Origin: an uncultured Rikenellaceae bacterium
GTDB taxonomy: Bacteria > Bacteroidota > Bacteroidia > Bacteroidales > VadinHA17
Direction of reading: 5' to 3'
DNA: 56,086 nt
Assembly (NCBI GenBank): GCA_964612275.1
Contig: CAZTES010000003.1
Span: 2,834-58,919 of the forward strand
This document shows, piece after piece, positions 8,419 to 38,910 of the stretch (the stretch's first letter is position 1; the number at the start of each line of letters is the position of its first letter). Under the pieces are notes generated by a model. That model saw only the letters and a list, made by a program, of their open reading frames with translations, was not told where the DNA came from and did no database searches. A program made the position numbers and the translations under genes.

Positions 8419-8558
8419 AATCAAATCGAATCAATATAAAGTTCTATAAACGTGACGCAATCGTCAAGTACAATAAATCTTTGTACCTTAGAAACATTAA
8501 CCAATTGCTTTACACTTTGGGATTGATCAAGAGATACCTGTTGTCCGGTCCCGGTTTA

Positions 8559-10037
8559 ATGCAAAGAATTGGTCTCCTCTCCGGTCCTTTGCTTGCGATC
8601 GTTCTGATTCTCTTTTTTGATCTTGACAAGGGAAATCCGAACGTTACCTTTACCGCTGCCGTTGCTCTCCTCATGGCCATCTGGTGGATTACGGAGTGTG
8701 TTCCCCTGGCGGTTACTGCTCTTTTACCGGTTGTTTTATTTCCCCTGATGGGGATTATGAATGGAAGAGCGGTATCTGCGCTCTATTTTAACCACATCAT
8801 TTTTCTCTTCATCGGTGGATTTATTGTAGCATTGGCGATGCAGAAATGGGACCTGCATCGGAGGATAGCATTATTCACCATGTTGATCTTTGGGATAAAG
8901 CCTGCCCGTATCCTCCTGGGTTTTATGATCACGACCTGGTTTTTGTCCATGTGGATCTCCAATACGGCTACAGCCATGATGATGGTTCCCATTGCTCTTT
9001 CTGTAATCATCAATCTGGAGGGGACGCTTAGTGCGAAACAGGTTAAGAAATATTCCATTGGTTTATTACTGGGAATTGCTTACAGTGCAAGCATTGGTGG
9101 CATTGCAACACTTGTTGGCACACCACCAAACCTTTCTTTTTCAAGAATCCTGACGATTACTTTTCCTGAGGTAACGGAGATCTCCTTTGCCTCCTGGTTC
9201 TTTTTTGCCTTCCCGATATCTCTTTTTTTCCTGCTCCTGGTCTGGTTGATCCTATCGTTTATATTTGGCAGGGAAAGTTTTTCAGTTGACCGATTCATTT
9301 TCAAGACGCAATTCAGGGAACTCGGAAGGATGCGGTTTGAAGAAAAAGTTATCTTAGCCGTCTTCCTGGGCATGGCTCTTTTATGGTTAACCAGAGCGGA
9401 TATAACCATCGGTCAGGTAACGATCCCTGGCTGGTCGGGAATATTTCCCCAGGCCGACTATATTAACGATGGCACTGTTGCCATAGCGCTTTCACTGATC
9501 CTCTTCATTGTTCCCTCGAAAGAAAAATCCCGGCTGATGGATTGGAAAACAGCTGCCAAACTGCCCTGGGGCATTGTCCTGCTTTTTGGCGGAGGATTCG
9601 CACTGGCAAGTGGCTTTAAGGAATCAGGCCTTTCGCAATGGTTCGGGATGCAGCTTTCCGGACTTGATGCTTTATCTCCGGGTTTTCTGATTGGAAGTAT
9701 CTGCTTCATGATCACTTTCCTTACGGAGCTGACATCCAACACGGCTACTGCAGAGATGATACTACCCATTCTTGCTGCTGTTGGAACAGCCATCGGAAGG
9801 AATCCCCTCTTGTTGATGGTCCCGGCCACTCTCGCAAGCTCTTTTGCATTCATGATGCCTGTGGCAACCCCGCCCAATGCCATCATTTTTGGTACCAACC
9901 GGATTCGTATCATGGATATGGTGAAAGTTGGATTCTTTATCAACCTTCTGGGGGTGCTTGCCCTGACGCTCGGAATCCTGGTTCTGGGATCTCTTCTGAA
10001 TATAGATCCTGCAATTATGCCGGAATGGGCAAAGTGA
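8559..10037 (+). CDS. SLC13/DASS-family Na+/dicarboxylate or sulfate symporter
   Basis: WISNTAT, GTPPN, ELTSNTAT, FMMPVATPPNAI motifs; many TM helices. ATG 8559 is preferred over TTG 8481. Confidence 0.93.
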   Translation: MQRIGLLSGPLLAIVLILFFDLDKGNPNVTFTAAVALLMAIWWITECVPLAVTALLPVVLFPLMGIMNGRAVSALYFNHIIFLFIGGFIVALAMQKWDLHRRIALFTMLIFGIKPARILLGFMITTWFLSMWISNTATAMMMVPIALSVIINLEGTLSAKQVKKYSIGLLLGIAYSASIGGIATLVGTPPNLSFSRILTITFPEVTEISFASWFFFAFPISLFFLLLVWLILSFIFGRESFSVDRFIFKTQFRELGRMRFEEKVILAVFLGMALLWLTRADITIGQVTIPGWSGIFPQADYINDGTVAIALSLILFIVPSKEKSRLMDWKTAAKLPWGIVLLFGGGFALASGFKESGLSQWFGMQLSGLDALSPGFLIGSICFMITFLTELTSNTATAEMILPILAAVGTAIGRNPLLLMVPATLASSFAFMMPVATPPNAIIFGTNRIRIMDMVKVGFFINLLGVLALTLGILVLGSLLNIDPAIMPEWAK

Positions 10038-10041
10038 GGGG

Positions 10042-10183
10042 AGTTATACGTTAAAAGTTATACGTTAAAAGTTATAAGTTGGGGGAGACTTTGAGAGGGT
10101 GATACGATGAGATTGGAAGGCTGAGAGACTGAGAGACGAAGGGACTGAGAGAAGTGAGTTGTGAGTGGTGAGTTATGAGAAGT
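10042..10183 (+). repeat. C-poor patchwork of short tandem repeats (GTTATAM heptamers, GAGACTGA octamers, GTGAGTK heptamers)
   Basis: AGTTATACGTTAAAAGTTATACGTTAAAAGTTATAAGTT; GAGACTTT...GAGACTGA GAGACGAA GGGACTGA; GTGAGTT GTGAGTG GTGAGTT. Confidence 0.8.
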
Positions 10184-10196
10184 CATGGTTACCAAT

Positions 10197-10260
10197 ACCC
10201 CGTAGGGGTTTAATATTGGTAGCCCCGGGTGAGAGAACGATAGTGACCGTAACCCGGGGT
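10197..10260. repeat. REP-like unit: ACCCCGTAGGGGT palindrome followed by a CCCCGGGT...ACCCGGGG hairpin
   Basis: Palindromes read directly. The same two-hairpin layout recurs at 36599-36658 (inverted) and 36678-36824. Confidence 0.6.
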
Positions 10261-10391
10261 TGGTGCGTTTTAGAATATATGGTCCAACTACCTGGTTATT
10301 CTGTGGGAAATCATTCCATGGACCAAACAAGCAGCAAGCCTAAATTCGAGAGAGAGAATTTATGACTGAAAGAAGAGCGATTGGAATTAAA

Positions 10392-10473
10392 GATTTCGTC
10401 CGAAGGACTCCTACGGAGAATATCGAATTTCGAACCTGTCCTGACCAACAATGTTGCGTCAGGATTTCGAATT
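10392..10473. repeat. AATTTCG heptamer array interrupted by two small hairpin elements
   Basis: GATTTCG [TCCGAAGGACTCCTACGGAG] AATATCG AATTTCG AA[CCTG TCCTGAC CAACAATGTTG C GTCAGGA]TTTCG AATT. Confidence 0.8.
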
Positions 10474-11107
10474 AAAAATTCAGGTTCACTCCCAGCTGAA
10501 TACCCGAATAATCCATTTCAAAATCTTCATATGTTTTGTCGTTCCCTTTTGCAAAATCATAGGCTAGATAGATCTGGGGGTTGAAACCGAAATTATTCAG
10601 GCTGAATCCAAACTGGCCCCTGTAACCCGGCATATTACACTCAAAATCCTCGAACCGCATTGCGTGATAGAACACACCACCACCAAAGAAGATTGAATTC
10701 TTTGCATTTTGGGAGAGTGGGATCAAGGCATTGGCTACAAAACCGGGTGAAAACCGACCGAAATTGAAAAATTTACTGGTCCCGCCGATCACTTTAATGT
10801 ACTTCATTCCTGCAGAATACTCGATTGTTCCATACAGTTCAACGTAATCATTGATCCGGTACCCCAGATCAAAGTGGGCACCGAGGTTAAGAATCAGGTC
10901 GGTAAAACCGACTGATTCAATAAGGTTTTCTTCTGCGAGCCAGGACTCAATATATTGATTCACATCGTCCGGGTTGAAAAAACCGATATGTATGCCAATG
11001 CCAACCAGAAATTTACCTTTGTTGAACCGGATGGTTTCCTTCTGGGCACCTGCAGTAAGAACTATTATCAGAAAACAGATAATTCCCGTTAACACTCTTT
11101 TTTTCAT
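10472..11107 (-). CDS. Putative outer-membrane beta-barrel protein
   Basis: Signal peptide, alternating amphipathic strands, C-terminal GIQLGVNLNF ending in Phe. Confidence 0.7.
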   Translation of the reverse strand: MKKRVLTGIICFLIIVLTAGAQKETIRFNKGKFLVGIGIHIGFFNPDDVNQYIESWLAEENLIESVGFTDLILNLGAHFDLGYRINDYVELYGTIEYSAGMKYIKVIGGTSKFFNFGRFSPGFVANALIPLSQNAKNSIFFGGGVFYHAMRFEDFECNMPGYRGQFGFSLNNFGFNPQIYLAYDFAKGNDKTYEDFEMDYSGIQLGVNLNF

Positions 11108-38585: not shown

Positions 38586-38910
38586 AAGGCTGAGGAGGAG
38601 GCAGAGGAGACTTTGAGACGAAGAAACTGAGAGACTAAGTGAGGGGGAGGTGAGTTGTGAGTTCCGCCGTCGCTAAAGCTTTGGCGGACAAGGATGAGAA
38701 GTGAGTGGTGAGTTTGTAAACTGGTGCTTGGTTAAGAGGAAGAGACGATGAGACTGTGAGAGGGGGAGAAGTGTTGTTTCATATGGTTTCAGATGGTTCA
38801 ATGTCGTTTCAATGGGTTCTCGGTCCTCGGTGCTCGGTGCTCTGTAACGAGTGACAAGTAACAGGTAACGAGAAAAGAAAGAGGTGAGTGGAGAGCTGAA
38901 AGTTACAGGT
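38586..38910 (+). repeat. Long patchwork of short tandem repeats containing one hairpin insertion
   Basis: Blocks of GAGACTRA octamers, GTGAGTK heptamers (interrupted by TCCGCC...GGCGGA CAAG at 38663-38692), GTTTCARNG-like 9/10-mers, CTCGGTS heptamers and GTAACRR heptamers. Confidence 0.8.

Follow-up and report, generated by a model that had tools for sequence, protein, structure and literature searches.

Very small palindromic elements, probably inserted, in a heptamer array of an uncultured Rikenellaceae bacterium

Two short hairpins interrupt an intergenic array of heptamer units in the genome of an uncultured Rikenellaceae bacterium, which raises the question of whether they are insertions of minimal mobile elements and, if so, by which route they may have arrived. 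The stretch concerned (10392-10473) is housed in a 434-nt intergenic gap between convergent genes, and positions are those of the window, i.e. the whole stretch of 56,086 nucleotides that was analysed. An earlier note made from the sequence had proposed that a block of 20 nt and another of 30 nt, here termed elements A and B, represent a possibly undescribed mobile-DNA system. The gap and its flanks comprise the following features.

8481..10037, plus strand: upstream gene, DASS-type Na+/sulfate-citrate symporter (PF00939, E 6.6e-74)
10038..10391: rest of the intergenic mosaic, with short-unit arrays (10042-10080, 10121-10152, 10154-10179) and small palindromes (10187-10224, 10220-10266, 10282-10325)
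10392..10398, plus strand: heptamer unit GATTTCG, the last G of which (10398) is the conserved base preceding element A
10399..10418, plus strand: element A, 20 nt, TCCGAAGGACTCCTACGGAG, TAC subtype (evidence: family copies, empty site in G004, fold)
10419..10434, plus strand: array units AATATCG AATTTCG AA separating inserts A and B, uninterrupted in G004
10435..10464, plus strand: element B, 30 nt, CCTG followed by a 26-nt hairpin (TCCTGAC / CAAC-AAT-GTTG / C / GTCAGGA)
10465..10476, plus strand: array remainder TTTCG AATTAAA, overlapping the stop codon (10472-10474) of the minus-strand ORF 10472-11107
10472..11107, minus strand: downstream convergent ORF, 211 aa, with a weak match to an outer-membrane beta-barrel (PF13505, 19.7 bits, below the Pfam cut-off of 28.7)

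Scripted deletion of A (10399-10418) and B (10435-10464) yields GATTTCG AATATCG AATTTCG AATTTCG AATTAAA, and the coordinates, sequences and restored heptamer array of the earlier note proved exact. Neither 20 nor 30 nt is a multiple of seven, and the inserts are therefore not decayed array units. Three other sequencing runs, belonging to two studies, yielded contigs with the same A- and B-carrying allele and not one differing letter; its presence in independent runs means that it is no assembly artefact. Folded as single-stranded DNA, B reaches -8.5 kcal/mol (z -5.25), a value matched by none of 200 shuffles; the fold of the window's A copy is weak (-4.5 kcal/mol, z -1.9, matched by 10 of 200 shuffles), because the TAC variant breaks one pair. 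Exact recurrences of either string are absent from the remainder of the 3.77-Mb, 424-contig genome, in which near copies exist.

These near copies define a family with the consensus TCCGAAGGACTCCTWYGGAG, also written as TCCGAAGGACTCCTTCGGAG. At no more than two mismatches, A occupies 11 distinct sites in this genome, the reversed-pattern control giving 0, and a Hamming scan at no more than four mismatches returned 24 rows, two of which are mirror reads of one palindromic site. The flanks vary from copy to copy and comprise arrays of CTGTACC, AATTACTATTG or AATATCG units, other palindromes and unique DNA. The count of copies and definition of ends proposed in the earlier note gave fixed ends, with 11 sites for A and three for B, both numbers being affected by the under-assembly of repeats in this metagenome-assembled genome (MAG) of 424 contigs. 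Five SusD-family genes are present in the genome; among the control genomes, Bacteroides alone matches SusD, and the organism is on this ground placed in the Bacteroidota.

Element A is composed of an inverted pair of 9-nt units, TCC-RNA-GGA and TCC-TNY-GGA, arranged about a central C. Searches with N at positions 4, 5, 15 and 16 revealed the subfamilies GA/TC, GA/TT, GA/AC, GA/AT, AT/GC, AT/GT and GT/TT, several of which break the long hairpin at these four positions, and unbiased searches at no more than two mismatches likewise placed most of the variation there, the stems being constant. The same positions form the triloops of two mini-hairpins, GTCC-RNA-GGAC and CTCC-TNY-GGAG, the latter presenting an RNA (purine-N-A) loop on its complement. 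DNA triloops of the type C-GNA-G are unusually stable. As judged from this variation, A can be understood as an inverted doublet of a 9-nt unit that may adopt either one 8-bp hairpin or two mini-hairpins.

The surroundings of 121 non-redundant copies follow a strand-specific rule. The base preceding A (-1) is G in 117 copies and the one before it (-2) is T or G in 104, and the bases following A are A or G in 107 (+1) and 101 (+2) copies, which places the insertion point between (T/G)G and RR. The conserved unit reads G-TCCGAAGGA-C-TCCTTCGGA-G, yet the array ruler shows that 20 nt are added, and one of the two Gs is therefore derived from the target or duplicated. The claim that no target duplication is left over holds from 2 nt upwards; the preceding G together with the terminal G of A may conceal the duplication of a single base or a boundary shifted by 1 nt, and the same ambiguity may apply to B, with the base A in place of G.

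Evidence for insertion of A is provided by exact empty sites in sister species at three orthologous loci, i.e. that of the window and those on contigs C27 and C41. At the window locus, the sister species G004 continues from TTATGACTGAAAGAAGAG... as GATTATCG AATATCG AATTGCG AA TTTAT, without A; at the C27 locus, ...GTAATCCAG|AATTACTATTGA... of G001 faces ...ACTATTG, A and AATTACTATTGA... of G000; and at the C41 locus, a gap of exactly 20 columns is present in G004 and G003 between conserved flanks (alignment A2). Empty alleles, a comparison suggested in the earlier note, were thus found for A at three clean loci in sister species, but in clean form not for B and not in the contigs of four metagenome runs (X3, X5, X6 and X7), which would hide rare variants and which displayed no empty allele, excision joint or indel. 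A further case is provided by the 44-nt GGTCCA...TGGACC element at 10282-10325, which lacks A; its relatives on C5 (~38029) and C378 carry A internally at one point, and the copy in the window therefore represents the "empty" version. In other genomes, A sits centrally in palindromes of the type CCCGAAGG|GATCCCTTCGGG and at the tips of longer hairpins, and its flanks pair over at least 5 bp in 8 of the 121 copies, a count that chance would put at 2.15 and that none of 200 re-pairings raised above 6. The resemblance of G004:C220 and G004:C35 to the A-plus-array arrangement of the window, considered as a larger shared unit, was rejected, these being separate A copies in similar array types.

Diverse surroundings were also observed in G045, a 7.3-Mb Lentimicrobiaceae MAG with 117-120 A sites (117 at no more than two mismatches). 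Twenty sampled copies possess flanks of at least eight unrelated types: 6-7 belong to one composite hairpin repeat, 5-6 share a second flank type, three are located at array borders and four in unique DNA. This variety indicates that A is itself a unit of dispersal, which also hitch-hikes in larger repeats. Across the 121 copies, the ends of A are sharp and identical and the sequence beyond them is unrelated, contrary to the ragged ends that decay of REP or MITE units, the alternative named in the earlier note, would have left. Since the same family boundaries recur elsewhere, the inserts are beyond chance. The proposal of separate, minimal, non-coding elements that were inserted independently is borne out by multiple copies, sharp ends and unrelated loci and, in the case of A, by the three exact empty sites; A and B are very probably genuine inserted mini-elements.

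Element B is the rarer family. At no more than three mismatches, it is present at three sites in this genome and at one site each in three of the four sister species, and it was not found in the remaining 36 of the 41 relatives; on these matches, B appears to occur only in its own genus. Weaker copies are located on C20, C9, C133, C244 and C327. The insertion point is strand-specific and the same in each copy, between the second and third bases of an (A/G)A|TT(T/G)CG-type unit, and the inner stem displays a compensatory change from CAAC/GTTG to CAGC/GCTG. One orthologous B is common to G003 and G004. At the window locus, G004 is devoid of B as well, but its downstream flank diverges, rendering this the weaker case of an empty site. 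At the B loci on C20 and C239, the intergenic sequences of the different species defy alignment, and empty sites are unobtainable there; none of the loci compared provides a fully clean one.

The role of the arrays was evaluated from the periodicity of the DNA next to A. In other genomes, flanks of A are periodic (threshold 0.6) in 24 of 121 cases versus 15 of 121 for DNA 110-140 nt away, and a strict threshold gave 2 versus 2 of 121; in this genome, 4 of 9 flanks are periodic versus 0-2 of 9 distal ones. A strict test for the same period on both sides yielded 0 of 132, and is too strict in that the upstream array of the window consists of a single unit. With an excess this weak, arrays as a required target of A were dropped. 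That the array fixes the boundaries, as the earlier note had put it, accordingly stands in one respect, a 20-nt deletion being the best fit in three of the four A copies with strongly periodic junctions (the fourth resides in a mixed 8/7-nt array), but not in the sense that arrays are needed: the array is a lucky ruler and no requirement for A.

Other hairpin families are found in a like situation. A census of interrupted arrays in this genome yielded 85 candidates, a crude number that includes much noise; GCCTTGCCTGCCGGCAGGCAG interrupts GAAGGAT arrays five times, TCACGTAGTGATGCCTACGGC interrupts ATAACTTA arrays, and TCCGCC...GGCGGA types occur likewise. Within the window, a 37-nt stretch with a TCCGCC...GGCGGA hairpin (38663-38699), of a family unlike A and B, interrupts a GTGAGT-type heptamer array in register. 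The case of A and B is one instance of a genome-wide habit.

Close to the two inserts, 10187-10224 constitutes a hairpin that encloses a CCCCGTAGGGG palindrome (z -3.7), and 10220-10266 a CCCCGGG...CCCGGGG hairpin with heptamer-like units in its loop. The latter element has five copies in this genome and extra contigs in every run compared; a depth spike together with loose ends at 10220-10262 in the run contigs marks it as a multi-copy element. The most frequent 14-mers of the genome all derive from small palindromes, of the types CCTGCCTGCCGGCAGGCAGG, TTCGAGGATCCTCGAA, CGTCTGAC/GTCAGACG and TCCGCTTCGGCGGA, and those containing CGTC are, judging by this motif, possible members of the superfamily of CGTC REPs that has been reported for Bacteroidetes. 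Overall, the intergenic mosaics of one species of the genus have next to nothing in common with those of another. Comparison of 10038-10471 with G001:C122, G003:C36 and G004:C30, and of the C20 locus with its counterparts in G001, G003 and G004, revealed near-complete intergenic replacement, the regions between the conserved genes measuring 271 to ~1290 nt and being built of different arrays and hairpins; the counterpart in G001 contains an extra small ORF-like stretch.

Beyond the genus, element A is widely scattered. An exact scan with TCCGAAGGACTCCTWYGGAG, restricted to one genome per species, detected at least 122 loci with at least 125 matches. The matches listed include MAGs of Chitinophagaceae, Saprospiraceae, Cyclobacteriaceae, Sphingobacteriales, Bacteroidales, Lentimicrobiaceae and Rikenellaceae, many of Ignavibacteria/Ignavibacteriota and Melioribacter, and one of Calditrichaceae; a cultured isolate carrying the exact sequence among the matches listed is Niabella hibiscisoli. 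One MAG labelled "Chloroflexota" (L060) hardly differs in its flanks of A from a Chitinophagales MAG (L066), and its label is, on this likeness, probably a binning error. Among 41 relatives, A was detected in seven, i.e. all five genomes of the genus as well as G008 and G022. In an even sample of the phylum, the carriers number 32 among 401 genomes and represent 23 of the 180 genera, with 1 to 23 copies per genome. All 31 carriers besides the genome under study belong to other classes, and none of the ~100 other sampled genomes of the same order or class contains A; occurrence in scattered classes and absence from near ones make for a patchy distribution. Only two of 2.9 million viral contigs carry A, which provides no sign of a phage vector.

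Clusters of A in G042, G043 and G045 flank no gene and are set in extended non-coding DNA. Six copies of the A subtype TCCATAGGACTCCTGTGGAG on one strand of G045 (C20:6272-8578), spaced at 300-700 nt, look like a tandem array of a longer A-carrying repeat.

Among known systems, the repetitive extragenic palindromes invite comparison. REPs are described as palindromes of 20-40 bp with GTAG or CGTC tags (PMC3733652), those with GTAG being thought to be moved by RAYTs and those with CGTC (Bacteroidetes, Chlorobi) to be without a dedicated transposase (PMC3733652), and REPINs as REP doublets (PMC3116915). The assertion of the earlier note that described mobile units are normally larger is at variance with this REP size (PMC3733652) and with the likewise very small SDRs of Nostoc. 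Both A (20-21 nt) and B (30 nt) are intergenic palindromes in the REP size range; the CCTG of B resembles a short unpaired tag, A as an inverted doublet is like a minimal REPIN, and the genome harbours 10 RAYT-like genes, mostly flanked by palindromes. In contrast to REPs, neither element has a GTAG or CGTC tag, A displaying a flanking G alone and B CCTG/CCYG, and the 11 Y1 loci of this genome and seven of G045 are free of flanking A or B. Compared with a REP copy number above 100 per genome, there are 11 copies of A and three of B in the under-assembled MAG, and 117-120 of A in G045. REP families and REP-RAYT pairs are usually lineage-specific, whereas A is conserved across classes.

Papers citing the Nostoc SDRs refer to them as "short mobile elements" or "small dispersed repeats", and they are reported to be confined to Nostocaceae (PMC5861425). 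By description, they are the nearest match in behaviour, A and B being very small, non-coding, dispersed hairpin repeats that are embedded in arrays and nested. The 2008 account of Elhai et al. in Genome Res (18:1484) is said to describe SDRs of 21-27 nt, often located in tandem heptamers or minitransposons and mutually nested, whose recent mobility was inferred and whose moving enzyme was reportedly not known. At 30 nt, B is slightly larger than that. The differences lie in the host, a member of the Bacteroidota versus a cyanobacterium, and in the range of A, which spans several classes; the likeness is one of description. Intergenic arrays of 7-nt units have been documented in Cyanobacteria, Beggiatoaceae and a few Bacteroidetes, and differ between close relatives (MacGregor 2015, PMC4679880); that paper treats the arrays rather than inserted elements and features neither the word "inserted" nor a citation of Elhai. 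In the literature searched, the coverage of which stops short of supplements and subscription journals, pieces of the A 20-mer on either strand were not found in print, nor were array-inserted mini-elements in Bacteroidetes.

IS608-type Y1 transposases act on ssDNA hairpins at the ends of their elements (PMC6006769). The likeness to the IS200/IS605 family (IS608, ISDra2) and its non-autonomous derivatives consists in a hairpin-dependent, strand-specific insertion by a short fixed motif, as seen in A from the fixed G at -1, T/G at -2 and exact blocks of 20 nt, with a 1-nt duplication possible. Insertion in this family takes place next to a short fixed motif and without a multi-base target duplication. 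These elements are, however, at least 10 times longer and have two distinct ends with separate hairpins and guide sequences, whereas A and B are single, near-symmetric units of 20-30 nt that encode nothing and have no TnpA linked to them. MITEs differ by a length above 50 bp, terminal inverted repeats and a duplication of at least 2 bp, compared with 20 and 30 nt and no duplication of 2 nt or more in A and B. Taken together, A and B act like REP/SDR elements yet do not qualify as members of either family; the suggestion of a possibly undescribed mobile-DNA system gives way to their assignment to the REP/SDR kind, as insertion elements of very small size and with a specific target site, which constitute no new category and rank among the smallest insertion elements known.

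Candidates for the moving enzyme were sought among Y1 genes. Ten strong Y1_Tnp (RAYT-like) ORFs of 140-223 aa, plus one weak, were identified in this genome (sites: C10:33730-34983, C243, C2:39631-39975, C136, C81, C201, C175 and C44). Most of them are flanked by their own palindromes of 13-25 nt, the gene on C2 residing between inverted copies of GGCCGCTCCTACGGAGC, and the Y1 genes of G045 are likewise flanked by small palindromes of their own; from this abundance it follows that hairpin-specific ssDNA enzymes are plentiful in both genomes. The Y1 gene on C10 is tandemly duplicated, with identical products of 170 aa. The 11 Y1 loci of this genome and the seven inspected in G045 never have A or B as their flanking palindromes, and in this genome, G045 and the phylum sample no gene, Y1 or other, was found that has A or B on its flanks or that shares the distribution of A. 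The link to HUH/Y1 enzymes drawn in the earlier note thus retains the 10 palindrome-flanked RAYT-like genes in its favour, but none of them is flanked by A or B or tracks A.

The Y1 ORF nearest to an A copy, which lies 387 nt upstream of it, is that on C229. In this ORF (C229:3806-4258), an in-frame TGA takes the place of the W that is conserved among its paralogues in the (F/Y)WQ-GYG motif, which points to either a pseudogene or a sequencing error. As the enzyme of A it was rejected, its closest relatives (88-90% identity) residing in the A-free genomes G020 and G014, as was a Y1-like protein of 226 aa encoded on C240, which is not co-distributed with A. Y1 genes are present in 34 of the 41 relatives and hence do not discriminate for A. 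In the phylum sample, canonical Y1 (E<=1e-8) was detected in 25 of 31 A-bearing versus ~175 of ~269 A-free genomes, a weak enrichment, and the A-rich genomes G206 and G362 (23 and 19 matches) have borderline Y1 matches alone.

In the preferred mechanism, A and B would be cut and joined as ssDNA hairpins by a host HUH/Y1 enzyme (RAYT-like or IS200/IS605-TnpA-like) acting in trans, which would recognize the mini-hairpin or mini-hairpins plus the adjacent G and paste the unit beside a short motif of the target with no duplication of several bases; each unit of the heptamer array would contain this motif once, so that insertion would be recorded in register. By analogy, the hairpin, the fixed adjacent base, the strand-specific target, the exact ends and the lack of multi-base duplication would fit the HUH Y1 mode, and the occurrence of A as one 20-mer across classes of the phylum, unlike REP-RAYT pairs, would count against it. 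The reading of A and B as two families of tiny, non-coding, palindromic insertion elements, REP/SDR-like and moved in trans by Y1, is given an even chance; that a Y1 enzyme moves them is, taken on its own, a tentative proposition with odds somewhat on the lower side.

Other routes were weighed against Y1 movement in trans. It is conceivable, if rather unlikely, that A is an autonomous-looking mobility unit of 20-21 nt that is common to classes of the Bacteroidota (in the GTDB sense, Ignavibacteria-type lineages included), displays two C-G-closed R-N-A triloop mini-hairpins and is moved by a conserved, non-adjacent enzyme other than a canonical RAYT. If true, no smaller mobile DNA of wide distribution than A would have been defined so far, its movement would point to a new pathway of transposition or insertion, and B, together with the many other hairpins that interrupt arrays in this genome, would represent sister families moved by the machinery of A.

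Movement without dedicated transposition, by templated repair, polymerase template switching or gene conversion between similar arrays or palindromes, is distinctly unlikely. Such copying would agree with the fast turnover of the intergenic regions of the genus as mosaics of similar arrays, the frequent location of A within similar array types (AAT-N-TCG | AAT), the presence of about a third of the sampled G045 copies inside a larger composite repeat and the failure of the enzyme search to yield a candidate tied to A. It is hard to reconcile with flanks that in most copies are unrelated right up to the edge of the element, an exact 20-nt block in three orthologous comparisons, one 20-mer shared by many genera and classes, and the G at -1 in 97% of the copies.

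Less probable again is a spread via RNA, with hairpins inserted into, or copied from, transcripts and fixed by reverse transcription, as has reportedly been proposed for the SDR elements of Nostoc. The idea draws on three of the at least 122 loci, where A is held in loops of sequence derived from tRNA-Ser(GGA), and on the commonest A variant, TTTGGAG, which keeps its pairing solely via G-T(U). At two of these loci (L027:151-170 and L042:151-170), A is located in the D-loop of a partial 5' tRNA copy just upstream of an intact tRNA-Ser(GGA), and at the third (L094:151-170) in the anticodon loop of a truncated copy, for which ARAGORN made no call even with the 20 nt removed. These cases are few, concern fragments, and two may be one event; moreover, the abundant subtypes TAC and AT/GC lose pairing altogether, Rfam returned zero matches over 9900-10600 at permissive E, and exact-ended, strand- and site-specific insertion fits a cut-and-join of DNA at least equally well. 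Very improbable is the view of A and B as stubs of longer units (REP doublets/BIMEs, MITEs) or as independently selected functional hairpins (protein-binding, RNA-stability), for which the many other REP-like palindromes and composite repeats of this genome, the inverted doublet of a 9-nt unit in A and the site 3' of two convergent genes might be adduced, but against which stand the sharp, identical ends of 121 A copies with unrelated DNA outside, the exact restoration of the array phase by removal of 20 and 30 nt, the absence of a terminator T-run and the inability of convergence to yield the same 20-mer at more than 100 loci.

For the question of how repeats of REP and SDR size move, A offers a defined substrate, a defined target and candidate enzymes, its inserted unit being pinned to the nucleotide (20 nt, after G) by the arrays of short units together with the empty sites at three orthologous loci. 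Tiny hairpin inserts in heptamer arrays, a combination familiar from cyanobacteria, are thereby extended to the Bacteroidota, and the mosaics account for the hypervariability of intergenic regions in such MAGs and for the breaks between their contigs.
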